NCBI GenBank assembly: GCA_037969075.1 | Contig: JBBKWS010000079.1 | Location: 1 to 23,769 of the forward strand | DNA from: Bdellovibrionales bacterium | Lineage (GTDB): Bacteria > Bdellovibrionota > Bdellovibrionia > Bdellovibrionales > UBA840 | Direction: 5' to 3' | Length of the DNA stretch: 23,769 nucleotides | Part shown: piece by piece, positions 5,266 through 23,769 of the stretch | Numbering within the stretch: the stretch's first letter is position 1 | How the letters are laid out: every line of letters begins with the position of its first letter | Notes under the pieces: generated by a model | Database searches by the model: none | What the model saw: only the letters and a program-made list of their open reading frames with translations | What the model was told of the DNA's origin: nothing | Position numbers and translations under genes: made by a program

Positions 5266-6147
5266 CTACAAGGACTGGATCAAATAATCTAATCCACCCT
5301 GAACCGCAGCAACCTGTGCATCTACACAAATCGCATCTGTCACCTTAGGGCTATCAGGATAGACCTCAGTGGTTGTTGTGTATTTGGCATTAGAAAACCC
5401 GGCGCAGAGAGAAAGCTTTTTAATTGGATAATTGATCACACCCTCTCCTGTGATTTTTTCACCAATAATTCTACCGCCCTCATCGTGAGGTGCGATGTGT
5501 GTTACTTTTCTTACAGAATCAATGACTGCCTTTTGAAAATTTTCTTGTGGGTTCTCGGTGTCTCCTACTACATAAAAACCATCAGGAATTTCCCACAGCT
5601 CTTGCTTAACTCCATCTCTAGCTTCTAGATCAGGCCTGAACACAGTGTTGTCAGTGTCAGTAGTTTCATGTAGATCGAAGTGAGCAAATGGTTCGATCTT
5701 ATCAGAAGACATGGCCTCTAAAAAAAGTTTACATTCTTCTGCTGGGCTATATTTAAAAAATGAGCGATTGGGATCGATAGCATCTTTGTTCCAACGGTTA
5801 ATGGTTTCATAGGCCCACGGACTAATACACGGGGCGATTACAAAATTGAATTTTTCTTGGTACTTACCAACCAATCTTTCGGCACAACCTAGCGCGCCAT
5901 GCACTCCGCTTGTTTCGTAACCATGAACGCCACCAGTAATTAAAATTGTCTTTTTAGATATATCGAAGTTTTTTGATTTCAATAAATACAAAGGGTACAT
6001 GTCAGGATTTAAGGACAAGGAGCCGTAAGAAGAGATATCGACATTAGTTTTAAGCATCTGAATTTTAGTAACCACTTCATTTAAATACGAGCGTTTAATA
6101 CTTTGTTTTTTAAACCATGTTTCTTTATCAGCTTTATTCCATGTCAT
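5266..6147 (-). CDS. M14 family zinc metallocarboxypeptidase (AstE/AspA-like superfamily)
   Basis: Zn-ligand motifs GGVHGYE and DLHE, NR motif (INRW, DPNRSF), catalytic-type Glu in TTEVYP. ATG 6147 has AGAGG SD 8 nt upstream. Confidence 0.85.
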   Translation of the reverse strand: MTWNKADKETWFKKQSIKRSYLNEVVTKIQMLKTNVDISSYGSLSLNPDMYPLYLLKSKNFDISKKTILITGGVHGYETSGVHGALGCAERLVGKYQEKFNFVIAPCISPWAYETINRWNKDAIDPNRSFFKYSPAEECKLFLEAMSSDKIEPFAHFDLHETTDTDNTVFRPDLEARDGVKQELWEIPDGFYVVGDTENPQENFQKAVIDSVRKVTHIAPHDEGGRIIGEKITGEGVINYPIKKLSLCAGFSNAKYTTTTEVYPDSPKVTDAICVDAQVAAVQGGLDYLIQSL

Positions 6148-6175
6148 AATCAATGCCTCTCTATGTTAGATCAAT

Positions 6176-7923: not shown

Positions 7924-10173
7924 TTACTCTTGTAAGCAATCGACATAATATTTTTTAACCCCATTTTCAATTTCTATTACTAGTCCATGAACATCAGTTT
8001 CAAAACCCGGAAACTCTTCGTTAAATTCCCTAGCAAACTGAAGGTACTGTACAATCAATTCATTGATTTTCTCTCCAGGCACCAAAAGTGGAATTCCCGG
8101 AGGATACGGAGTTAATAGTACAGCTGTTGTTTCTCCTAAAAGCTTGTCTATCTCAACACGCTTGATTTTACCATGAGACATCATCCTAAATGCATTTGCG
8201 GGAGTGGTCGTCACTTTAAATTCAGAGAGATACATTTCAGTTGTAAGCTTAGCAATATTTTCTTTTTTATAAGACGTATGAATTTTTTGACAAAAGTCTT
8301 TCAAACCAAGATCTTTGTATTTTGGATTTCTGTTTGAGAATTTAGGAAGTATTTTTGACATTAGAGCATTGTTATCATAATCTGTTTTGAACTGCTCTAG
8401 CATCGCAAGAAGAGTATTCCATCTTCCCTTTGTAATCCCAATAGTAAACATAATGAAAAATGAATATAAACCGCACTTTTCAACAATCACGCCGTGCTCG
8501 GCAAGGTACTTTGTCACTATGGCAGCCGGAATCCCTGTTACATCAAACTCTCCTGTCATTTTTAAACCAGGAGTCAAAATTGTCGTTCTAACTGGATCTA
8601 ATATATTAAAACCATCCGCTACATTTCCAAAACCATGCCAGTCTTCGTTCGATTTTAATGTCCAATCCTCTTGAGTCCCAATCCCTTCTTCGGCGAGCTT
8701 GTCAGGCCCCCACACCTTAAACCACCAATCATCACCCCACTCAGCCTCAGTCTTTCGCATGGCTCTGCGAAAATCAATAGACTCCACAATACTTTCTTCA
8801 ACAAGCGCCTGACCGCCAGGCCCATCCATCATCGCAGCAGAGACATCGCATGACGCAATAATAGAATACTGCGGACTAGTTGATGTATGCATAAGATAAG
8901 CCTCATTAAATAAATGCTTATTTAGTTTTTTATTTTCTGAATCACTTACTAAAATTTGAGACGCCTGACTTAGACCCGCCAGCATTTTATGAGTTGATTG
9001 CGTTGAAAAGACAATCGATTCCTTTGTTTTGGGTCTATCCTTTCCTATGGCATGCATGTTTTTATATAAATCATGAAAGCCTGCGTGCGGCACCCAGGCC
9101 TCATCAAAATGCAAAACCTCCACCTTGCCGTCGAGCAAGCCTTTAATTGTCTCAACATTATAACTAATCCCATCGTATGTACTTTGCGTGAGAGTCATTA
9201 TCCTTGGTTTTTTTGTTTTATCTTTAATCAGCGGATGAGCGTCAATTTTCTTTTGGAGTGTTTCCATAGAAAACTCTTCTTTAGGAATAGGGCCAATGAT
9301 TCCAAAATGATTTCTTGTTGGAGTCATATATATTGGGATTGCGCCCGTCATAATAATCGCATGTAAATTGGATTTATGGCAGTTGCGATCAACTAATACA
9401 ATATCATCTGGGCCGACGCAAGAATGCCAGACTATCTTGTTAGATGTTGAAGTTCCATTAGTTACAAAAAACAAATGATCTGCATTGAAAATTCTAGCTG
9501 CATTTTTTTCTGAGGCCTCTATGGGACCGGTATGATCTAACAGCTGTCCCAACTCATCGACCGCATTACAAACATCGGATCTTAAAAGATTTTCACCATA
9601 AAACTGATGAAAGACCTTGCCAACGGGCGATTTTAAAAATGCAACTCCGCCAGAGTGGCCTGGACAATGCCAAGAATACGATCCTTTTTGAGCATACTCT
9701 AATAATGATTTAAAAAATGGAGGTACTATTGAATCTAAATAGTCTGCTGTTTCTCGAACAATGTGTTTTCCAATAAACTCTGGTGTGTCCTCATCAAGAT
9801 GTAAAAATCCATGCAACTCTCTAAGAATACTATTCGGAATATGCCTAGAGGTTTTTGTTTCACCGCATAGATAAATAGGTACATCAGAGTTCTTCTTGCG
9901 AATAGTCGTTACCGAATGTTGTAACTCATTAAGTATGCCGCCGCTTTGATCTGGACCAGACTTTTCAAAGTCCTCATCATCGATAGAAAAAATAAATGCT
10001 GCCGCATGTTTTTGATGTTGCACAAAATTCATAACATCTTTACGGCTAGTTGCAGCGAGTACAGAGACCCCCAATTGTTCGATTGCCTTGCTGATCATTC
10101 GAATTCCTTCGCCGCTAGCATTATTGGCGTGGAAGTCTTCATCTATTATTACAACAGGAAAATCCAGCTTCAT
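7924..10173 (-). CDS. Class-I (AAT-fold) PLP-dependent Orn/Lys/Arg decarboxylase with N-terminal wing domain; ornithine decarboxylase by context
   Basis: Motifs WHCPGHSGG, TNGTSTSNK, DRNCHKS, HFDEAW, PLP-lysine motif QSTHKMLAGLSQAS and PYPPGIP. SD GGGAGGA upstream. Substrate inferred, not shown. Confidence 0.93.
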   Translation of the reverse strand: MKLDFPVVIIDEDFHANNASGEGIRMISKAIEQLGVSVLAATSRKDVMNFVQHQKHAAAFIFSIDDEDFEKSGPDQSGGILNELQHSVTTIRKKNSDVPIYLCGETKTSRHIPNSILRELHGFLHLDEDTPEFIGKHIVRETADYLDSIVPPFFKSLLEYAQKGSYSWHCPGHSGGVAFLKSPVGKVFHQFYGENLLRSDVCNAVDELGQLLDHTGPIEASEKNAARIFNADHLFFVTNGTSTSNKIVWHSCVGPDDIVLVDRNCHKSNLHAIIMTGAIPIYMTPTRNHFGIIGPIPKEEFSMETLQKKIDAHPLIKDKTKKPRIMTLTQSTYDGISYNVETIKGLLDGKVEVLHFDEAWVPHAGFHDLYKNMHAIGKDRPKTKESIVFSTQSTHKMLAGLSQASQILVSDSENKKLNKHLFNEAYLMHTSTSPQYSIIASCDVSAAMMDGPGGQALVEESIVESIDFRRAMRKTEAEWGDDWWFKVWGPDKLAEEGIGTQEDWTLKSNEDWHGFGNVADGFNILDPVRTTILTPGLKMTGEFDVTGIPAAIVTKYLAEHGVIVEKCGLYSFFIMFTIGITKGRWNTLLAMLEQFKTDYDNNALMSKILPKFSNRNPKYKDLGLKDFCQKIHTSYKKENIAKLTTEMYLSEFKVTTTPANAFRMMSHGKIKRVEIDKLLGETTAVLLTPYPPGIPLLVPGEKINELIVQYLQFAREFNEEFPGFETDVHGLVIEIENGVKKYYVDCLQE

Positions 10174-10202
10174 TCTTATTCCTCCCGAGTCGCCTCGCCT
10201 AG

Positions 10203-10220
10203 TACGACTATTTATGCACG
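10203..10220 (-). promoter_or_regulatory. Possible weaker ARG box upstream of the decarboxylase
   Basis: Minus strand cgTGCATaaatAGTCGta: left half matches TGMAT, right half is 3/5 of ATKCA. It lies 30 bp upstream of the decarboxylase ATG. Confidence 0.4.
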
Positions 10221-10246
10221 AAAGTTACTTTATAAGCAATAAAACA

Positions 10247-10275
10247 TTGACAATTTCATATACGTAAATAATTAT
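10247..10275 (+). promoter_or_regulatory. Sigma70-type promoter of the argCJBR-hss operon
   Basis: Perfect TTGACA (10247-10252), 17-bp spacer, AATTAT (10270-10275, 4/6 match to TATAAT). Confidence 0.65.
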
Positions 10276-10301
10276 GCATATATGGTGCATAATAATTCAT
10301 T
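10263..10301 (+). promoter_or_regulatory. Tandem ARG boxes (ArgR operator), 18+3+18 bp
   Basis: cgTAAATaattATGCAta (10263-10280), tat spacer, ggTGCATaataATTCAtt (10284-10301). Both fit NNTGMATwwwwATKCANN with canonical 3-bp spacing, and argR is in the operon. Confidence 0.85.
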
Positions 10302-11340
10302 TAATGATTTTAAAAAATCAACGTGTTCGATAGTGGGCGCTCGAGGCTACGCAGGTTTAGAACTTGCTAGGCTTTTACTTGCACATCCTCAAGCAAGTCT
10401 AACTCATTGTTTTGCAACATCTGCTTTTGATTTATCAGCACACCTGTCTAATCCCAAAGCTACACAAGTTCAGTGCCTACCTGATACAGAAATTATGGCA
10501 AACCTAACTGACTATGTGTTTTTAGCCACTCCTGCAGAAGTTTCATTGAAGCTAGCACCTCAGATTATTGCCTCTGGAAAGATAGTCATTGATTTAAGTG
10601 GAGCCTTCAGACTTAAAAAAAGTGACTATCAAAAGTGGTACGGCTTTGAACATACACAAAAAAACACTTTGTTAGATGCGACCTATGGATTGATTCCCTG
10701 GGTGGGGCCATCACGCTCAGAGCGAATGATTGCAAATCCAGGCTGTTACGCTACCTCTATCTTATTAGCACTACTTCCATTAATTAAAGATAATTTAATC
10801 CTCTTGGATTCTATTGTCATAGATGCAAAATCAGGTAGCACTGGCGCCGGAAAAAAAGCTACAGAAGGTCAATTATTTGCTGAAGTTGATGGCGAGTGTC
10901 TGCCTTACAGGGTTGGCCAACATCAACATCTTCCTGAGATTTTAGAAACTATCGAAACTCTTACCGGGGTAAAACTAAACCCCCACATGACAACCTCATT
11001 ACTACCCGTTCGACGAGGAATACTTTCTGGTATATATGCTAAATTAAATGCAAAAAAATCTGTAGAAGATGTAATTCAATCTTACAAAAAATATTATGCC
11101 GACTACCCATTAGTTCGACACGGTTTAGTTTCTGAGAAACCCGAGGGACTCCTCTTAAAGCGTGTCGTTGGAACAGCGAAAACACATATAAGCTATTCGA
11201 CCCAAGAACAGAATTTATATGTATTCTCTTGTATTGATAATTTACTTAAAGGCGCAGCTAGCCAAGCTGTAGAAAATTTTAACCGCTTACTTGATCAATC
11301 CATTGATACTGGATTAAATCAATTGGAGGCCATGACATGA
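10282..11340 (+). CDS. argC: N-acetyl-gamma-glutamyl-phosphate reductase
   Basis: IVGARGYAG, IDLSGAFRL, catalytic ANPGCY, AKSGSTGAG, HQHLPEI, DNLLKGAASQA. Confidence 0.97.
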   Translation: MVHNNSFNDFKKSTCSIVGARGYAGLELARLLLAHPQASLTHCFATSAFDLSAHLSNPKATQVQCLPDTEIMANLTDYVFLATPAEVSLKLAPQIIASGKIVIDLSGAFRLKKSDYQKWYGFEHTQKNTLLDATYGLIPWVGPSRSERMIANPGCYATSILLALLPLIKDNLILLDSIVIDAKSGSTGAGKKATEGQLFAEVDGECLPYRVGQHQHLPEILETIETLTGVKLNPHMTTSLLPVRRGILSGIYAKLNAKKSVEDVIQSYKKYYADYPLVRHGLVSEKPEGLLLKRVVGTAKTHISYSTQEQNLYVFSCIDNLLKGAASQAVENFNRLLDQSIDTGLNQLEAMT

Positions 11341-12533
11341 CACCAGGTCCTGGAGTTCGTCGTACCCCTTTACCAAAGGGATTTCTTGCAAGTGGAGTTA
11401 ATTGTGGAGTTCGCAGATACCGACCTGATATCGGCCTTTTGATATCAGAAGTTCCTGCTGTAGCGGCTGGAGTTTTTACATTAAATGAATGTCGAGCTGC
11501 CCCAGTACTTTACACACAAAGACTTTTACCATCCGATAACGTGCGAGCGATCGTAACAAACTCCGGGCAGGCTAATGCTGCAACTGGATCAGAGGGTATT
11601 GAAAAGAATTTAATGATGGTTTCGGCCATTGCGAAAAACTTAAATTGCGATTTAAATCAAGTGCTTGTAGCAAGCACAGGGAAAATTGGTGAGCAATTAG
11701 ATACAGAAAAGATTCTACCATCTATTTCAGATCTTGTTAAGCGGGCCAATGATTCAGCCGAAAGCTTTGCCACCGCAATTTTAACAACAGATCTTGTACC
11801 TAAATCAATATCCACAACAGTAGTGCTATCGACAGGTACGGTTAGAATCACTGGTATATGCAAAGGCTCAGGAATGATCCACCCAAATATGGCCACCATG
11901 CTTGGTTACATCCTTACTGATGCGAAACTTACTAAAGAACATGCTCAGGATCTATTGAAAAAAACTACCGATGTCAGCTTCAACATGATCAGCGTTGATG
12001 GTGATTCATCAACAAATGATTGCTGCTTTTTAATGGCAAATGGTGTTTCTGGAGTGAGCCCGGTAGATGAAAAAGATATTCAAAAATTTGATACGGCTGT
12101 AAAAAAAATAATGATATTTTTAGCTAAGTCTATTGTAGCCGATGGAGAGGGCGCTTCTAAACTTATAGAAGTGCAAATCAAAGGTTCAGACAATTTCGAA
12201 CTTGCACGCAAAGCCGCAAGAGGACTTACGCTTTCTCCCCTAATCAAAACCGCCGTTCATGGTGAGGATCCTAACTGGGGAAGAATTCTTGCGCGCTTAG
12301 GCGCAGAAAGTATACCTGCTGAGCAACTAAATAAAATGGTTCTTAAAATTCAAGGAGTGACCTTATTTGAAAAAGGCCAGCCCGCACAATTTTCCCGTGA
12401 CGAAGTGAAGAAGTTATTAAAGCAAGCAGAAGTAAAAATCGAAGTAAATCTTCACTCTGGAAAAGAAATTGCCACTGCGTGGGGATGCGATCTTTCGCAT
12501 AAGTATGTAGACATCAATACGGAGTACTCATGA
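11337..12533 (+). CDS. argJ: Ornithine acetyltransferase / glutamate N-acetyltransferase (ArgJ)
   Basis: NSGQANAATG, ASTG.IG, autoproteolysis site KGSGMIHPNMA|TML, DGDSSTND, DGEGA, DPNWGRI, WGCDLS..YV.IN..Y. ATGA overlap with argC; GGAGG SD. Confidence 0.97.
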   Translation: MTPGPGVRRTPLPKGFLASGVNCGVRRYRPDIGLLISEVPAVAAGVFTLNECRAAPVLYTQRLLPSDNVRAIVTNSGQANAATGSEGIEKNLMMVSAIAKNLNCDLNQVLVASTGKIGEQLDTEKILPSISDLVKRANDSAESFATAILTTDLVPKSISTTVVLSTGTVRITGICKGSGMIHPNMATMLGYILTDAKLTKEHAQDLLKKTTDVSFNMISVDGDSSTNDCCFLMANGVSGVSPVDEKDIQKFDTAVKKIMIFLAKSIVADGEGASKLIEVQIKGSDNFELARKAARGLTLSPLIKTAVHGEDPNWGRILARLGAESIPAEQLNKMVLKIQGVTLFEKGQPAQFSRDEVKKLLKQAEVKIEVNLHSGKEIATAWGCDLSHKYVDINTEYS

Positions 12534-13354
12534 AGCAAATAGTTGTTATTAAATTAGGTGGCTCTGCCTTACAAGACAAGACTACAGTCAGCGGACTAGC
12601 TACTTTGATAAAAGGTTACCAAAAACAACGATACAATGTGGTGATAGTTCATGGTGGCGGCCCGGCAATCAATAAAGAGCTAGAAAAGCGCTCTATTACC
12701 TGGAAGTTCGTCGATGGCCAGAGACAAACAACTCCAATAATGATGGATGTTATTAACGACGTCCTTGCTAAGCAAGTAAACTCAATGCTCGTGGACTGCC
12801 TAAGATTTGAGGGTGTTCGATCTTCAGGGCTTTCTGCGGCCGATGATAGAATATTATTATGTAGCCAGCTAAGCCCTGAGCTTATTCAAGTAGGTAAAGT
12901 CGAAACTGTAGATGTTACTGCTATCAAGCCTTATTTTGAAACTGTCCCAAGAGTGACTCCTGTTATCGCGCCCATAGGAATTAGCTTTGAAACCAAAGAA
13001 ATAAAATATAATATCAATGCCGACTGGGCTGCAGTGAAAATTGCTATTGCTCTGAAAGCAAAGAAACTAATTTTTCTAACTGATCAGTCTGGTATTTTAG
13101 ATGCACAAAAAAGATTAATTGAAAAAACTGACCCTGAAGAATTGCAAAAACTTATCGACTCAAAAGTTATTTATGGTGGCATGGCAGTGAAAGTTAGGGC
13201 CATGAGTACCGCTCTTGAATCTGGAATTAAATCAGTACAAGTCATGCATGCGGCATCTACAGCCGAGGCGGTAAACAACAAGTGTCTAGGAACCCTTCTC
13301 GTTAACAAACCAACAAACTTAAAAAATGGATTCTACAGTGGCAGAGCAAAGTAA
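12530..13354 (+). CDS. argB: Acetylglutamate kinase
   Basis: VIKLGGSA, VHGGGP.I, G.RQT, NINAD, LTDQSGILD, GGMAVKV. ATGA overlap with argJ. Confidence 0.95.
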   Translation: MKQIVVIKLGGSALQDKTTVSGLATLIKGYQKQRYNVVIVHGGGPAINKELEKRSITWKFVDGQRQTTPIMMDVINDVLAKQVNSMLVDCLRFEGVRSSGLSAADDRILLCSQLSPELIQVGKVETVDVTAIKPYFETVPRVTPVIAPIGISFETKEIKYNINADWAAVKIAIALKAKKLIFLTDQSGILDAQKRLIEKTDPEELQKLIDSKVIYGGMAVKVRAMSTALESGIKSVQVMHAASTAEAVNNKCLGTLLVNKPTNLKNGFYSGRAK

Positions 13355-13814
13355 AACAGAGGCACAAGAAAGACTTTTGATTTTAAGACAGTTACTTAAA
13401 GACAAAGTTGCCGGAACTCAAGAAGAAATATGTAGCGCTTTACGAGCTAAAAGCTTTGATATTACGCAAAGCACAGTTTCTCGTGATCTAAGACGAATTG
13501 GTGCGGTGAAAACCATTAATGCTAGTGGTGATTTTATATACCGTCTACCCGAGGACCACCGAGTTTTTACTCCAATTAGTGGAAGTTTAAGCGAATTAGT
13601 CACCGACATTCAGAGCAATGAAGTGATGATTGTTGTACACACTAAACCCGGATCAGCTAGTTTACTAGCCACTCACATTGATAACGCAAAAAAATCACTT
13701 GGAATACTAGGAACACTAGCCGGAGACGACGCTATTTTTATAATTCCAGCATCTATTAAAAAAATTTCAACAGTAATAAAAAAAACACAAGAACTTCTAG
13801 ATCCAGAGACTTAG
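13326..13814 (+). CDS. argR: Arginine repressor family regulator
   Basis: wHTH with TQEE and TQSTVSRDL; C-domain HTKPGSA...ID and GTLAGDD. Overlaps the argB end. Confidence 0.95.
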   Translation: MDSTVAEQSKTEAQERLLILRQLLKDKVAGTQEEICSALRAKSFDITQSTVSRDLRRIGAVKTINASGDFIYRLPEDHRVFTPISGSLSELVTDIQSNEVMIVVHTKPGSASLLATHIDNAKKSLGILGTLAGDDAIFIIPASIKKISTVIKKTQELLDPET

Positions 13815-13854
13815 TTTTTTAAAGATTTGCGATAGGTCGCATAAAGGAGGCATA

Positions 13855-15294
13855 ATGCAAAAAAACAATTCTTCAACCAACTACGGTGAAATCACAGGTC
13901 CCATTGTCATTATTGGATTTGGCTCAATTGGCAAAGGTACACTACCTCTTATTGAAAAACATTTCAAATTTGATAAATCACGATTGGTTGTAATTGATCC
14001 ATCTGCAAAAGATAAAAAGCTTTTAGAAGAGCGAGGAATTCAATTTGTTCAAAAAGCTGTTACAAAAGAGAATTACAAAGACTTACTTAAACCTTATTTA
14101 AAAAATGGTGACGGCACTGGTTTTTGCGTCAACCTGTCAGTCGATGTTTCATCTCTTGATATGATAAAGTTTTGCCGAGATATCGGCGTCTATTACATAG
14201 ACACCGTCGTAGAGCCTTGGACCGGTTTTTATTTTGATGATACCAAGAGTACAGCTGATAGGTCTAACTACTCTTTAAGAGAAACTGTTTTAGAAGAAAA
14301 GACAAAAAATAAAGGTGGCATTACGGCTGTTTCATGTTGTGGTGCGAATCCCGGAATGGTTTCTTGGTTCGTAAAGCAAGCTCTACTAAATCTTGCTAAT
14401 GATCTTAAGATAGAACACACAGTGCCTGCAAACCGAACCGAGTGGGCCTTATTAATGCAAAAGGTTGGCGTCAAAGGAATACACATTGCCGAAAGAGACA
14501 CTCAAATATCTAAACGACCAAAGCCGATGAATATTTTTGTTAATACATGGTCAGTGGAAGGATTTGTTAGCGAAGGTCTACAGCCAGCCGAATTAGGCTG
14601 GGGTACGTTTGAAAAATGGATGCCCGAAAATGCATCCACTCATACATCTGGTTGCGGGGCTGCAATTTATCTTAACCAACCTGGGGCGAACACGAAAGTA
14701 AGAACATGGTGTCCAACGCCAGGTCCTCAGTATGGACGACTTGTAACTCATAACGAATCCATCTCAATAGCTGACTACTTTACAGTTAGAAAATCTGATG
14801 AAGTAACTTATCGACCAACATGTCATTACGCTTATCACCCAAGTAATGATGCCATCCTGTCGCTAGAAGAAATGTTTGGTAGGTCTGGTGAACGCCAACA
14901 TGAACAACACATTCTTGACGAAAATGAAATCACCGAAGGGGTTGACGAGCTAGGCGTTTTATTATTTGGGCACGAAAAGAATGCTTATTGGTACGGCTCA
15001 CAACTATCTATCGAAGAAGCTCGAAAGCTAGCTCCATATCAAAATGCAACTGGCCTTCAGGTAACATCTGCAGTTCTAGCAGGAATGGCCTGGGTGCTTG
15101 AAAATCCAGAGGCAGGAATTGTAGAAGCCGATGAAATGGATTTTGCAAGATGCCTTGAGTTTCAATTGCCTTATTTAGGCCCGGTAAATGGATTCTATAC
15201 TGATTGGAATCCATTAAAAGACAGACCTGGATTCTTTCCAGAAGACATTGATGCTAGTGATCCGTGGCAATTCAAGAATGTCATAGTACGCTAA
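13855..15294 (+). CDS. hss: Homospermidine synthase
   Basis: GPIVIIGFGSIG NAD-binding motif, DTVVEPW, SCCGANPGMVSWFVKQAL, NTWSVEGF.SEG.QPAELGWG, HNESISI, YRPTCHYAY, QNATGLQV, DPWQF. Strong AAAGGAGG SD; 40 bp after argR. Confidence 0.97.
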   Translation: MQKNNSSTNYGEITGPIVIIGFGSIGKGTLPLIEKHFKFDKSRLVVIDPSAKDKKLLEERGIQFVQKAVTKENYKDLLKPYLKNGDGTGFCVNLSVDVSSLDMIKFCRDIGVYYIDTVVEPWTGFYFDDTKSTADRSNYSLRETVLEEKTKNKGGITAVSCCGANPGMVSWFVKQALLNLANDLKIEHTVPANRTEWALLMQKVGVKGIHIAERDTQISKRPKPMNIFVNTWSVEGFVSEGLQPAELGWGTFEKWMPENASTHTSGCGAAIYLNQPGANTKVRTWCPTPGPQYGRLVTHNESISIADYFTVRKSDEVTYRPTCHYAYHPSNDAILSLEEMFGRSGERQHEQHILDENEITEGVDELGVLLFGHEKNAYWYGSQLSIEEARKLAPYQNATGLQVTSAVLAGMAWVLENPEAGIVEADEMDFARCLEFQLPYLGPVNGFYTDWNPLKDRPGFFPEDIDASDPWQFKNVIVR

Positions 15295-15307
15295 TACCCG
15301 TACTTCA

Positions 15308-15333
15308 CGGCTCGCCAAATAAATGGCGAGCTG
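15308..15333. terminator. GC-rich hairpin between convergent hss and APC permease genes
   Basis: CGGCTCGCCA-aataaa-TGGCGAGCTG, 10-bp stem with one G-U pair. No clear U-tract on either strand. Confidence 0.6.
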
Positions 15334-15338
15334 GTAGG

Positions 15339-16769
15339 TTAATATTTTTCTAAAATTAAATATTTTCTATCTTCTTCAGGAAGAGAATCTCGCTCTTTTT
15401 TCCCAGAGTACCAAAAGATAATTGCCAAAAGAGTAATACCACCAAAGATGCCCCACTCTAAAGGCCAAACAAGACTTAAGGGTGAGGCTGGAATAAGTAA
15501 GGCCCCAAGAATAAATACAGATCCAGCAGCAGCAATATAGCCTACTAGTTTTGGGTGTTTTACTTGGTAAGGGCGTTCTAAATTTGGGTAGTCTTTACGT
15601 AATTTTAAAAACGATAAAGACACTCCTAAAAAAGCCATGGCTATGCACAAAGAGCCGACATCTACAAAGGCAACCATAGCACCTCTTCCTAGAAAAGATG
15701 ATAGAAGCGTAAACCCTCCAGTAAAAAGTATGGCTACACTTGGAGTACTATATTTCTCATCGACTTTACCAAAAGTCTTTGAAATTAAACGACCTCTGCC
15801 AAGAGCAAATAAAACTCTTGAGCCTGCCAAGAAAAAACCATTCCAACTTGTAAACAAACCAAGTAAGGCCGCTATTAAAATAATATCTGGCAACCAAGCA
15901 TTTGAAAATAAGTGATCAAAAGCAGCTGCTGCTGGCAAAGTACCCTGAATGGTGCTCTCCCAAGGGGATGCAAGCGAAGTAGATAATATTAGTAAGACAT
16001 AAAAGACAGCCGATGCAAGTATGCTGACAACGATGATCCTACCAAGATTTTTAGCAGCAATACCCGCTCCAGCTTCTTCTGCAGCTTGTGGAATTGTATC
16101 GAACCCCACAAACCAAAAAGGAGCGGTGATAAAAACACTAATTATTCCTGCGGAAGAATCTATAAAATCAGTATGTGCAAACATAGGACTAAGGTTGCTC
16201 CAGTCTCCAAATATCAAACCAGCACCAACAAATAGTAGAACCGCAGTTAAAAATAAATACGTAAGCCAAATTTGTACTCGCACAGCGTACTTAGGTCCGT
16301 AATAATTTACCGCTGTGATAATTCCTGTAAATACTAAAGCTAAAAGTAAATGGGATGCAAACACTTGGTCACCACCAACGCTATACAAAGGAAAAATATC
16401 AAGACCCGGGACCAAATAACCCAGTACTTTTCCAACAGATATGGCCTCAAAAGCTGATACAGACAAATAACCAAATGCTAAGAACCATCCAATGATAAAA
16501 GACTTTGATACACCAAAGGCTTTGTAAGCATAAGCTACCTCTCCTCCTGCAACAGGAATCATAGACGTTACTTCTGCATAGCAGAGGCCAATAAGAGCCA
16601 TAAAAATACCGGCTAATCCAAAAGCGATGATTGCGCCCATTGGACCTGCTGATGAAAACCAGTTTCCTATGCCTGTAACCCATCCCACACCAATCATTGA
16701 GCCAAAGGCCAATGAAAAAAAGCCGATTAGAGAAATTCCACCTTTAAGTTTTTTACGATCAATTATCAT
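15339..16769 (-). CDS. APC family amino acid/polyamine permease
   Basis: GSMIGVG (TM1), YAEVTSMIPVAGG, FVGFDTIPQAAEE (TM6), SRVLFALGR, ERPY; about 12 TM segments. Confidence 0.92.
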   Translation of the reverse strand: MIIDRKKLKGGISLIGFFSLAFGSMIGVGWVTGIGNWFSSAGPMGAIIAFGLAGIFMALIGLCYAEVTSMIPVAGGEVAYAYKAFGVSKSFIIGWFLAFGYLSVSAFEAISVGKVLGYLVPGLDIFPLYSVGGDQVFASHLLLALVFTGIITAVNYYGPKYAVRVQIWLTYLFLTAVLLFVGAGLIFGDWSNLSPMFAHTDFIDSSAGIISVFITAPFWFVGFDTIPQAAEEAGAGIAAKNLGRIIVVSILASAVFYVLLILSTSLASPWESTIQGTLPAAAAFDHLFSNAWLPDIILIAALLGLFTSWNGFFLAGSRVLFALGRGRLISKTFGKVDEKYSTPSVAILFTGGFTLLSSFLGRGAMVAFVDVGSLCIAMAFLGVSLSFLKLRKDYPNLERPYQVKHPKLVGYIAAAGSVFILGALLIPASPLSLVWPLEWGIFGGITLLAIIFWYSGKKERDSLPEEDRKYLILEKY

Positions 16770-21155: not shown

Positions 21156-23747
21156 CTAAAATAACGATTTACAAGAAGTCGCATCCATTTCCATATGAGG
21201 CATATCCGCTAGTTCTTTGTGATTATTAAGACTGGCCTCAATGGCAATAAAGCCTTCGCTATTGGTAGTTCTTGTCAGAAAAATGGTATCTCCTGGTGCA
21301 TACTCGGCGTTGCCAGTGATTTTTTGCACGGCCCCTTTAATATAGGCATCTACCGCATTTAAACTTGGCCTTACTCCTCTTAGTAGTGGATTTTCGGCTC
21401 TTAAAAAATCTTCTATTAGACGTGCATCTACTTCTAATTTAAGCCCTGATGACTCCAGCATCTCTACTCGAATCGCATCTATCGCGCGCGATAAAATTTC
21501 AGTGCTAATTTTCATAGGTAATACTGATGAAACCGACACCACATCCATTCGATTGATAATATAATCTGGCACTTTATTTTCAAATAACTTACGAAGTTCT
21601 GCTGTAGTCATTTCTATAAGCCTTTTATTAATCTGCTCCTCTGTCCACTTCACCACATCATCAGGAAAGATAGTATGAGCCCCCTCATTAGAGGTAAGAA
21701 CAATCATGTGCTTATTTAGACGACGAATTTTATTATCGCCACCTTCAACAATGCCCTTATCAAACATTTCCATCAGAGATTCAAAAAACAATAAATTAGC
21801 CTTCTCTACTTCATCAATAATTATAATCCCGCCAAACTTACCTTTTGCAGGATCATCTAACCAATCCATTAAACGACCCGCGGTGTGTTTACCAAAAGTA
21901 ACTCCACCCGGAACACCAAGAAGCATACTCATCTTAATATCGTTAGCATCACTATACTGACTGGCCTTAATCATAAAGACTCGCTCTTTTGATTTAAGCG
22001 CTAGCTCGGCGAGTACCTCTGCCGTTTCCGTTTTACCAGTACCAGATCTACCAAGCACTAAACCAACCTTTACGCCCCTCTTGCCTTCATTACGAACCAC
22101 GGACAACCATAAATTAACAAAATCATTTACCATTCGCTCTTGACCCAGAACCCGCGCACTTACTTTTTCAAATAAATCTTTGCGGTATTTTTCCATGGCT
22201 TTCGCATCACGAGGATCGGCCGGTAGCCCATGCTCTTTTTGAACAAAATCATATACATCTGTTTTGTTTAAAGTTACGCGAGAGACTCCTTCTTTATATC
22301 GCTTGTGATTTAGTAAGTCGTCGGCAAAAACAAAGCTGCCGTCCAAAACTCCTTTATCAGGAAATACCAATCCGACTTTACGAATTATAAGCTTCATTAC
22401 ATCTTCATTAATTTCTGAGTCAGCATATAGAATTTTAAATAGTGGCATCCATGATTTTTTAAAAATTTCTAAGATTTCTGCCTCAGAAAACTCTCTGACC
22501 GCTACTTCTTGAACTCTTCGTAGCAAAGCTCCATTATGTTTGAACGTCGACCTAAACTCCGGTGATGTGCTTGCGCCAATTAGCATGATTTTACTTGATG
22601 TAGATTCGATGAACGGTTTGATAGCCTCAATTTGAACTTCGGTAAGAGTATGAAACTCATCAATAAATACTATCACCCTGCGGTCAATTTGCTTTTGTAC
22701 TTCATTAATAGCAGAAAAGTAAGCTTCAATGGCATCGGCTTGACCCGCTGGCTTATCTGTTTTTGCAAGCCTTGAAATACGGCCAGAAGTGGTCGTGATG
22801 ACTGTGGCATTTTTAAAAATCTCTGTAACTACATTATCCGTGTATTGTCCTGTTACTAAACCAAATGAAAAGCCCTCAACAATGGCTGTTTTACCTGCTC
22901 CGGCTGATCCAATGAGTACGGCATTTTGTTGCCTATGCCTCGATAAAACCATTAGTAATCGTTCAACCACATCTTCTCGGCCAAGAATTTTGGCGTACTT
23001 ACCATCTTTTAATTTATCATAAACATCATCTGTCATGAACTTAGTTGTACCAGCTAAAAGAATGTCAACCGGGCCAGAATCTCCAGCCTTTACAGGGCCC
23101 GCTGATTGACGCCCTTTCTTTAGCCCGCGAATTTGGTCTTCGAACTTTACATATCCCTCTAAGGCTTCTCTTTGCTTAATATCCTCAATCCCTAAAGCTT
23201 CTCTAGATAAGGATGCATGTTTATACGCAGTACTAAGCTCAGAAATAATGTGTGCGTTAATACCACTAAGCTCTGGAAAAAGCTTTGAACCCACTTCTGT
23301 ACGCAACTTTGCTGCCTCGAGAGCTTCATCAATATATCTTATGAATTCTGTTTTAGTAGCGCTAGTATTTCTAGAAGGATGAGACTGAAGCCAAATAGTT
23401 AAACGATCTCTAAGATCTAATAGTTTAGATTCACCACTTTGCAAAACATTCGACGGATGCACGTGACTACGGTTAGTAATTTCGCCGATAGTTTTAATAT
23501 AGTACTCAATAACTTTTTTACTTTTTTTATCGTTGATAGCTGTAATAGCCTGCTCTATCACTACATCCGCCACATCGGTATAGCGATAGTCTTTTAAAAC
23601 ATCGAGCCCTGCTATAATTCTACGTTCGTTATTACTATGAATGGCGTCCCAGATGACTAAGAACTCAGATTGCTTCGCATCAAGTGCGACCGCTTGTAAA
23701 TTAGAAGATATGAAAAGAAGAGCTAAAAAAACTATAAAAGCGCGCAT
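21156..23747 (-). CDS. ClpA/ClpB-like double AAA+ ATPase with predicted signal peptide and non-canonical N-domain
   Basis: D1: ILGRE, GSAGAGKT, VFIDEFH, ALLRR. D2: VLGQE, GRSGTGKT, IIDEVEKA, LTSN, NRMD, GVRP. No M-domain. ATG 23747 has GGGGA SD; N-terminus MRAFIVFLALLFISSNLQA. Confidence 0.85.
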   Translation of the reverse strand: MRAFIVFLALLFISSNLQAVALDAKQSEFLVIWDAIHSNNERRIIAGLDVLKDYRYTDVADVVIEQAITAINDKKSKKVIEYYIKTIGEITNRSHVHPSNVLQSGESKLLDLRDRLTIWLQSHPSRNTSATKTEFIRYIDEALEAAKLRTEVGSKLFPELSGINAHIISELSTAYKHASLSREALGIEDIKQREALEGYVKFEDQIRGLKKGRQSAGPVKAGDSGPVDILLAGTTKFMTDDVYDKLKDGKYAKILGREDVVERLLMVLSRHRQQNAVLIGSAGAGKTAIVEGFSFGLVTGQYTDNVVTEIFKNATVITTTSGRISRLAKTDKPAGQADAIEAYFSAINEVQKQIDRRVIVFIDEFHTLTEVQIEAIKPFIESTSSKIMLIGASTSPEFRSTFKHNGALLRRVQEVAVREFSEAEILEIFKKSWMPLFKILYADSEINEDVMKLIIRKVGLVFPDKGVLDGSFVFADDLLNHKRYKEGVSRVTLNKTDVYDFVQKEHGLPADPRDAKAMEKYRKDLFEKVSARVLGQERMVNDFVNLWLSVVRNEGKRGVKVGLVLGRSGTGKTETAEVLAELALKSKERVFMIKASQYSDANDIKMSMLLGVPGGVTFGKHTAGRLMDWLDDPAKGKFGGIIIIDEVEKANLLFFESLMEMFDKGIVEGGDNKIRRLNKHMIVLTSNEGAHTIFPDDVVKWTEEQINKRLIEMTTAELRKLFENKVPDYIINRMDVVSVSSVLPMKISTEILSRAIDAIRVEMLESSGLKLEVDARLIEDFLRAENPLLRGVRPSLNAVDAYIKGAVQKITGNAEYAPGDTIFLTRTTNSEGFIAIEASLNNHKELADMPHMEMDATSCKSLF

Positions 23748-23769
23748 CAAAAATCCCCATGGATTATGA

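Follow-up and report, generated by a model that had tools for sequence, protein, structure and literature searches.

The 23,769-nucleotide stretch analysed here (the window) is the whole of contig JBBKWS010000079.1 in the 2.5-Mb assembly GCA_037969075.1 of a Bdellovibrionales bacterium (90.2% complete, 5.7% contaminated), labelled G000 below; genome (G), locus (L), genus (g) and family (f) labels are working labels for the compared Bdellovibrionota assemblies. It contains a six-gene cluster in which a decarboxylase gene is transcribed divergently from argC-argJ-argB-argR-hss, where hss encodes a putative homospermidine synthase (HSS). This cluster is a gene-for-gene remodelling of the arginine cluster of the order, in which argH-argG diverge from argC-argJ-argB-argF-argR. 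The features of the locus are:

7924-10173, minus strand: decarboxylase gene, Pfam OKR_DC_1 with N and C domains
10180-10185, minus strand: decarboxylase ribosome-binding site GGAGGA, read from the sequence
10203-10220: ARG-box-like site 1, position weight matrix (PWM) score 13.4, overlapping the -10 of the predicted leftward promoter
10211-10239, minus strand: predicted leftward promoter TTGCTT-17-CATAAA, for the decarboxylase gene (for argG in the ancestral type)
10247-10275, plus strand: predicted rightward promoter TTGACA-17-AATTAT, for argC-argJ-argB-argR-hss, 10/12 consensus matches
10263-10280 and 10284-10301: tandem pair of ARG-box-like sites, separated by 3 bp and covering the -10 and the start of argC
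10282-11340, plus strand: argC, N-acetylglutamyl-phosphate reductase, TIGR01850 300 bits (cut-off 234), start codon uncertain
11337-12533, plus strand: argJ, ornithine acetyltransferase/N-acetylglutamate synthase, PRK05388 464 bits (cut-off 351), TIGR00120 423 bits (cut-off 298)
12530-13354, plus strand: argB, acetylglutamate kinase, TIGR00761 192 bits (cut-off 151)
13326-13814, plus strand: argR, arginine repressor, TIGR01529 135 bits (cut-off 130), both Pfam domains
13855-15294, plus strand: hss, homospermidine synthase of Alphaproteobacterial type, 773 bits to Blastochloris viridis HSS (PDB 4plp)
15302-15339: strong hairpin between hss and a convergent amino-acid permease gene, -22 kcal/mol, z -4.2, 0/200 shuffles

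The four arg genes overlap one another (argC/argJ and argJ/argB by 4 nt each, argB/argR by 29 nt), and hss follows after a 40-bp spacer that contains a GGAGG ribosome site, has no stable fold (z 0.06), and yielded no terminator in a terminator scan. The coordinates, scan, and fold score thus agree with a preliminary description of this DNA, in which argC-argJ-argB-argR were coupled and hss followed 40 bp on without a terminator. Its class-I-type basic amino acid decarboxylase, transcribed divergently from a 108-bp intergenic gap, is likewise borne out by the OKR_DC_1 domains and the gap length. A promoter-like match before hss (13827-13856) was rejected because it overlaps the hss start codon. 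The hairpin behind hss has no U tract and is likely the 3' end of the transcript.

ArgJ passes the cut-offs of models for the bifunctional enzyme. The HSS has the saccharopine-dehydrogenase-like two-domain fold (PF03435 and PF16653), and its 773-bit match to the B. viridis protein extends over residues 10-479. The motifs holding N162, E210, W229, E237, H296, E298, Y323, and D361, which an excerpt of PMC4725965 gives as active-site residues of HSS, align unchanged in the window protein. The top named matches of this HSS are Bdellovibrionota, and its nearest named relatives outside the phylum are Alphaproteobacteria (74-75%).

The absence of argF, argG, and argH, noted earlier for the window, extends to the whole G000 assembly, and carAB, also missing from the window, was located elsewhere beside pyrB. 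No match to argG was found in this 90% complete assembly and no argH match exceeded the cut-off; argF was not found either, the sole carbamoyltransferase being PyrB. Weak argG-family matches (19-29 bits) were rejected as other PP-loop proteins, and OTCase matches (49-152 bits) as PyrB.

Two states of the arginine cluster in Bdellovibrionota

Among 251 genomes of the order, G000 included, ArgJ was matched in 73, HSS in 15, and the decarboxylase (at least 61% identity) in 14; merely a partial decarboxylase match of 35% was seen in two further genomes. Of the other 72 argJ genomes, 62 supplied the 63 argJ loci compared here; the loci of G075 and G141 were inspected separately, and eight genomes, mostly with short or split matches, were left out. 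The usual cluster is complete in 38 of the 63 loci. argF is present in 46 loci, hss in 10, and the decarboxylase gene in nine, and not a single locus combines argF, argG, or argH with hss or the decarboxylase. At the genome level, 14 of the 15 hss genomes also have argJ and the decarboxylase, no hss-negative genome of the 251 encodes the decarboxylase at that identity, and argF, argG, and argH are each over the cut-off in 0/15. In ten of these 15 genomes completeness is 90% or higher and contamination 5% or lower. By comparison, argF occurs in 49 of the 51 hss-negative argJ genomes examined (46 in the locus, three elsewhere) and was found in neither G226 nor G198.

Compared with the usual cluster, the decarboxylase occupies the argG-argH slot, exactly so at every intact locus; argF, which directly precedes argR in the ancestral type, is gone; and hss stands after argR. 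This derived order lies on one contig in G000, G015, G034, G028, G131, G232, G227 (where a contig end cuts the locus), G134, and G250, and the module is split over contigs in G196, G135, and G075. hss overlaps the argR stop codon in G134 (TAATG) and begins 11 nt after argR in G232. The whole module is also present in a named Pseudobdellovibrio assembly (L077). Since the arrangement recurs in other genomes with different flanks, it is not due to chance, and the linkage of hss with argCJB that had been noticed in one stretch is thus recurrent, with no co-resident argF, argG, or argH in the 15 hss genomes of the order. No argJ match was found in 178 of the 251 genomes, suggesting that arginine auxotrophy is common in the order; what is peculiar to the module is that the early half of the pathway is kept.

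In a phylum-wide set of 400 genomes, three further close HSS were found, in G541, G435, and G420. G541, of another class, contains the module with hss inverted, and argF, argG, and argH were not found in it; in G435 and G420 hss stands alone, with argFGH present in the latter. A distant HSS (39-47%) is present in 14 more genomes of the phylum; two that were inspected (L193/L194; G375, G262) are not near arg genes and stand beside ABC transporter-like genes. A distant type (~40%) occurs in 14 of the 34 genomes of family f18. The 13 metagenome loci comprise five full modules, one partial module, two of the argF type, two with argCJB only, and three that are too short, several being 96-100% identical in ArgJ to counted loci and therefore not independent. 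A search of named genomes covered 3/64 parts of the collection, and absence beyond the phylum is not established by it; an argJ-pattern search of viral contigs gave no match. In G152 (L170:8214-10057) a remnant of the module consists of argR (a short frame) followed by hss; argCJB and the decarboxylase were not found in this 99% complete genome.

In a tree of concatenated ArgC, ArgJ, and ArgB, the hss-type loci group as a single clade (11/60 rows, FastTree support 1.0), which is recovered in a chosen 29-row tree as well (12/29 rows, 100/100). This clade adjoins argF-type loci from genera g14 and g84; its members belong to families f1, f5, f9, f10, f12, and f13 and to a second class. A constraint holding genus g14 together was rejected (p-AU 1.5e-7), although this group was named after the first tree had been seen. 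Between G000 and G541, ArgJ is 76% and HSS 77% identical, but PyrB only 40% and the AstC-like enzyme 39%. The nearest named ArgJ proteins to that of the window are from Pseudobdellovibrio (80%) and Bdellovibrio (69%). Because a single ArgCJB clade extends over six families and a second class, one origin near g14/g84 followed by horizontal spread appears the likeliest history. A simple transfer is at odds with the 68% identity of the DHS-like proteins of G000 and G541 (described below), with ArgB and ArgR identities of merely 50-53%, and with the finding that argF-type loci also do not follow family labels.

Promoters and ARG-box-like sites

Bipolar arg clusters under ArgR control are known from E. 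coli, where argE is divergent from argCBH. In the window, the 108-bp gap contains a predicted promoter for each arm and three ARG-box-like sites. The leftward promoter was read by eye, from the conservation of TTGC..N17..CATAA(T/A) in the alignment, and was not called by a sigma-70 scan; the TTGAC of the rightward promoter keeps its offset in most of the aligned relatives, whichever their cluster type. An ARG-box consensus, adjusted once the window had been read, gave 118 sites (two mismatches or fewer) across 58 upstream regions, compared with a mean of 2.4 (maximum 9) for 200 base shuffles. A three-box pattern with spacings of 58-63 and 20-21 bp recurs in 10 of the 11 hss-type and 23 of the 43 other regions, in none of the four argR-less regions, and in 0/1160 shuffles. 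In the alignment of both types, box 1 lies on the leftward -10 and boxes 2 and 3 on the rightward -10 and start.

ArgR operators are tandem 18-bp ARG boxes, 2-3 bp apart, over the promoter, and the tandem pair of the window has this layout. It is the only such pair above threshold in the whole assembly. Single boxes prove little, as single sites elsewhere in the genome score as high; no ARG boxes were found in the stretches around the G000 speA, DHS-like, or ast genes. The ArgR motifs QSTVSRD and GT(L/I)AGDD are kept as in argF-type loci. Given the same promoter and box positions in both cluster types, the decarboxylase gene has likely inherited the promoter and predicted repression of argG.

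Two observations concern the start of argC, which has no ribosome site. Its ATG coincides with the predicted transcription start and lies between ARG boxes 2 and 3, so that the argC message is possibly leaderless. If the assembly were off by one base, an out-of-frame ATG at about 10305, upstream of six consecutive A, would yield a normal ArgC N-terminus. In G182, the leader of the inverted hss (L022:12199-12470) contains two AT-rich inverted repeats and no ARG box, and is possibly a different control element.

Predicted pathway and its alternatives

From the gene content and order, the absences, the tree, and the conserved operator-like sites, we infer the substrate, regulation, flux, and purpose of the module: with argF, argG, and argH lost and a decarboxylase and hss acquired, the former arginine cluster likely converts glutamate to homospermidine by way of ornithine and putrescine, under repression by arginine. 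Ornithine would be produced in the usual acetyl cycle by ArgJ, ArgB, and ArgC together with an aminotransferase from another locus (likely AstC-like or GabT-like), and could not proceed to arginine because ArgF is absent. The divergent decarboxylase would convert ornithine to putrescine, and the putative HSS would then join two putrescines into homospermidine. Arginine-bound ArgR would silence the two arms by way of the three ARG boxes kept from the ancestral cluster. That the early arg genes feed ornithine into polyamines had been suggested from the window alone; the synteny, the absence of argF, argG, and argH from all 15 hss genomes, and the ODC-like features described below (ODC, ornithine decarboxylase) are consistent with it.

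E. coli AstC and GabT are able to stand in for ArgD. argD is part of neither the window cluster nor the ancestral one, and no G000 protein passes the argD cut-off. The class III aminotransferases of G000 number three: one resembles HemL in its sequence and gene neighbours, another is GabT-like, and the third is AstC-like and heads an ast operon. An AstC-like enzyme is present in 24/24 genomes tested and is the likeliest candidate for the missing ArgD activity. The ast-like operon of G000 (G000:C142:1150-6429, L189) consists of genes for the AstC-like aminotransferase, an M20 deacylase, AstA, and an AstD-like protein. The GabT-like gene belongs to a run (G000:C39:449-9750; L014, L188) with genes for a carbon-nitrogen hydrolase, an 874-aa distant decarboxylase (32% identical to that of the window), an ATP-grasp-like protein, and an aldehyde dehydrogenase, possibly an amine or γ-aminobutyrate (GABA) pathway.

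The window decarboxylase (749 aa) combines a wing domain with a pyridoxal-phosphate (PLP) core, groups with LdcA-type proteins, and stands apart from SpeC/SpeF, CadA/LdcC, and AdiA. It is below every NCBIfam cut-off, including those of ODC models, and its top named matches are Bdellovibrionota, with a 71%-identical protein recorded under Bdellovibrio bacteriovorus. Identities are 64% to an R. solanacearum MolK2 homologue, 69% to Gallionellaceae proteins, and 30-39% to five E. coli enzymes. A quick tree of 23 rows, which does not include LdcA and does not give the direction of transfer, joins it with the Ralstonia and Gallionellaceae proteins (SH-aLRT 92). Its motifs are H-C-P-G-H (C170) and D-V-C-N-A (C202, N203), with the PLP lysine motif STHK at 393-396. 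C-P-G-H together with D-x-C-N-A is found in 9/9 aligned cluster decarboxylases, the Ralstonia homologue, and E. coli SpeC/SpeF; the corresponding motifs are T-P-G-H and D-x-S-x-S in CadA, LdcC, and LdcA, and A-P-G-H and D-M-G-I-E in AdiA. These features suggest that the cluster enzyme is likely an ornithine decarboxylase. A role as arginine decarboxylase is disfavoured, since it would duplicate SpeA and would not use ornithine. The wing domain is mostly lost in the cluster decarboxylases of G131 (L017), G232 (L018), L077, and G075/L164, proteins of ~620-650 aa that amount to the extended-type core without the receiver domain.

A second polyamine route appears to be encoded in the same genomes. 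A genome search for speA and speB found both SpeA and agmatinase over their cut-offs in G000, together with a DHS-family gene:

G000:C42:29120-30085: DHS/SpeY-like gene, PF01916 over the cut-off, below all NCBIfam SpeY/DHS cut-offs

DHS-family genes and arginase-family matches are each present in 15/15 hss genomes (the former in 47 of 55 genomes tested), and SpeA-sized frames in nearly all of them, those of G028 and G141 being cut short. Orthologues of the DHS-like gene, 75% identical, lie directly behind speA in G199, G045, and G010, and the protein, at 321 aa, matches three tested SpeY proteins (321-327 aa) in length, lengths and not sequences having been compared. SpeY is an agmatine-coupling DHS homologue that forms G44G. 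An excerpt of Li et al. 2026 (PMC13625781) describes the HSS and SpeY routes as mutually exclusive; should the DHS-like protein prove to be SpeY, hss genomes would hold both routes. The module is likely an arginine-sparing second route and a possible exception to that exclusion. When arginine is plentiful, from prey or rich medium, polyamines would be made from it by way of the SpeA, SpeY-like, and agmatinase genes; when it is scarce, the auxotroph would switch to de novo ornithine. The retention of ArgR would make sense here, since the same product would also be made from arginine. The wider proposal is that ArgR switches arginine-auxotrophic Bdellovibrionota between a SpeA/SpeY route from prey arginine and an ODC/HSS route from glutamate to the same polyamine, by means of a mobile module of three sources (native argCJBR, a Betaproteobacterial-type ODC, and an Alphaproteobacterial-type HSS); taken jointly, we give it roughly an even chance. 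The preliminary description's self-contained polyamine unit stands in part: the early arg genes, decarboxylase, and HSS are together. The unit is not self-contained, since argD is absent and an aminotransferase encoded elsewhere would have to act, and a SpeA/agmatinase/SpeY-like route exists beside it.

Several observations weigh against the proposed pathway. Five of the 15 hss genomes are less than 90% complete or more than 5% contaminated, and the counts are not independent events because the genomes are kin and the module appears to be of one origin. G141 has no argR between argB and hss, the G134 decarboxylase gene has one in-frame stop, and hss stands without argCJB in G152, G435, and G420. 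hss is inverted, facing argR, in G182 and G541, where it would need its own promoter. G226 (L069) and G198 (L074) keep argCJB(R) with no argF, argH, or hss found, which indicates that ornithine has other possible uses. With SpeA and agmatinase present in G000, HSS could be fed without the module. As for the decarboxylase, both ODC-like motifs come from our own alignment and are not a published specificity rule, the Ralstonia protein compared is not confirmed as the assayed SpeC, the wing domain is shortened in G131, G232, and L077, and the closest solved relative, LdcA, is a lysine decarboxylase. An excerpt of Carriel et al. (PMC6257575) also warns that phylogeny may not predict substrate in this family.

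The last points bear on whether the enzyme is instead an LdcA-like lysine decarboxylase, yielding cadaverine or mixed HSS products and leaving ornithine for something else. Its best PDB match is P. aeruginosa LdcA (6q6i, 760 bits), its best NCBIfam score is to LdcC (far below the cut-off), and PMC6257575, as excerpted, calls the whole subfamily lysine decarboxylases. LdcA has TPGH and DLSVSV, however, where the window protein has CPGH and DVCNAV like ODCs, and the 64-69% identity is to a Betaproteobacterial branch whose tested members are ODCs, those of B. pertussis and R. solanacearum having been placed in the LdcA clade (Li et al. 2021, PMC8503589, in part). As the cluster also has no lysine gene and its ornithine has no outlet to arginine, we regard lysine as a very unlikely substrate. 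In another reading, most of the ornithine from argCJB goes to a different sink (ornithine lipids, the AST pathway, or nitrogen storage), with hss and the decarboxylase as a co-transferred island and HSS fed by SpeA and agmatinase. OlsB-family (PF13444) genes in G015, G182, G226, and G198, the ast operon and SpeA and agmatinase genes of G000, and the retention of argCJB with neither argF nor hss in G226 and G198 are consistent with such a sink. No PF13444 match was found in G000, though, and no ornithine cyclodeaminase in 5/5 genomes tested, and the decarboxylase sits in the argGH slot at every intact locus and tracks hss in 14/15 genomes, which makes this scenario very unlikely. In G226 and G198, both with OlsB-family genes, ornithine may serve lipids.

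The pathway could also operate as proposed with ArgR control that is vestigial or answers a changed signal (constitutive expression, activation, or ornithine or polyamine sensing). The G141 cluster lacks argR, the G134 boxes depart from the three-box pattern, and no box precedes the inverted hss of G182. Set against these, ArgR has the same motifs for binding DNA and arginine as its counterparts at argF-type loci, the box spacing is the same in 10/11 hss-type regions from six families, and boxes are absent where argR is absent; altered control is highly improbable, and the arginine-repressed pathway remains the preferred interpretation.

Comparison with known systems and surroundings of the cluster

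The arrangement is real and recurrent, apparently undescribed, and composed of known enzymes. The preliminary description knew of no argCJBR-hss operon with a divergent decarboxylase, and the literature searched likewise pointed to none, although mention in earlier work on HSS transfer or Ralstonia SpeC, or in preprint supplements, is possible. With the order's arginine cluster it has in common argC, argJ, argB, argR, the divergent layout, the promoter region, and the three ARG-box-like sites; it differs in that argF, argG, and argH are absent from cluster and genome, the decarboxylase is the left arm, hss ends the right arm, and the predicted product is a polyamine. The systems of hss with an alanine-racemase-fold ODC (with or without speB) in PMC13625781, as excerpted, are likewise putrescine-dependent HSS routes with a linked decarboxylase. 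Unlike them, the module has an AAT-fold decarboxylase of Betaproteobacterial type, includes ornithine synthesis and a repressor, and occurs in genomes with a SpeY-like gene. Members of the LdcA subfamily (P. aeruginosa LdcA, R. solanacearum SpeC, and B. pertussis Odc) share the fold, wing domain, and clade, and ldcA is also arginine-regulated according to parts of PMC6257575 and PMC8503589; the cluster enzyme differs in lying in a Bdellovibrionota arg cluster with no conserved adjacent antiporter gene, and in its shortened wing in some carriers. Viral arginase-ODC-HSS and ODC-HSS routes are likewise mobile ornithine-to-homospermidine modules, but start from host arginine or ornithine (PMC9992855, in part), whereas the window module would start from glutamate. 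Engineered Corynebacterium ornithine or putrescine producers with attenuated argF reportedly follow the same design (argCJB on, argF off, ODC added); the module is natural, would retain ArgR control, and would extend to homospermidine.

With ancestral and derived states side by side, the locus illustrates how an operon may come to make something else when its terminal genes are exchanged and its promoters and repressor are retained, and it explains the retention of argCJB in genomes scored as having a "broken" arginine pathway. The co-occurrence of HSS and SpeY-like genes is a testable case for the 2026 exclusion claim, and a two-route ArgR switch, if true, would break the stated mutual exclusion. 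The module also hints that Bdellovibrio-like predators need polyamines at times when the prey supplies no arginine; the literature searched yielded no paper on this topic.

The window contig was considered as a contaminant and this was rejected, its tetranucleotide fit (0.971) being within the assembly range (median 0.980). Two similar, non-identical copies of an ssb-lysA-miaA-mutL region (G000:C103 and G000:C58) fit the 5.7% contamination, as from a second close population in the bin. The left flank of the window is 74-78% identical to the same-genus genome G001, and the remaining tested stretch (to 19900) was not found there; as a TamA-like window gene was also not found in 5/5 family members, the cluster region looks accessory. 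The permease and M14 peptidase genes and pqiAB, which neighbour the cluster, were rejected as parts of the module, having no homologue in the 63 argJ loci. The M14-family peptidase (5266-6153, minus strand) weakly matches a Shewanella N-acetylornithine deacetylase model; at 33 bits against a cut-off of 400 this was not taken as evidence for such an enzyme, and the gene is probably unrelated, since it is common to G001, which is without the cluster. At 21156-23750 (minus strand), upstream of a TamA/TamB-like pair, the window encodes a divergent ClpA/B-like AAA+ ATPase that scores far under all Clp cut-offs.

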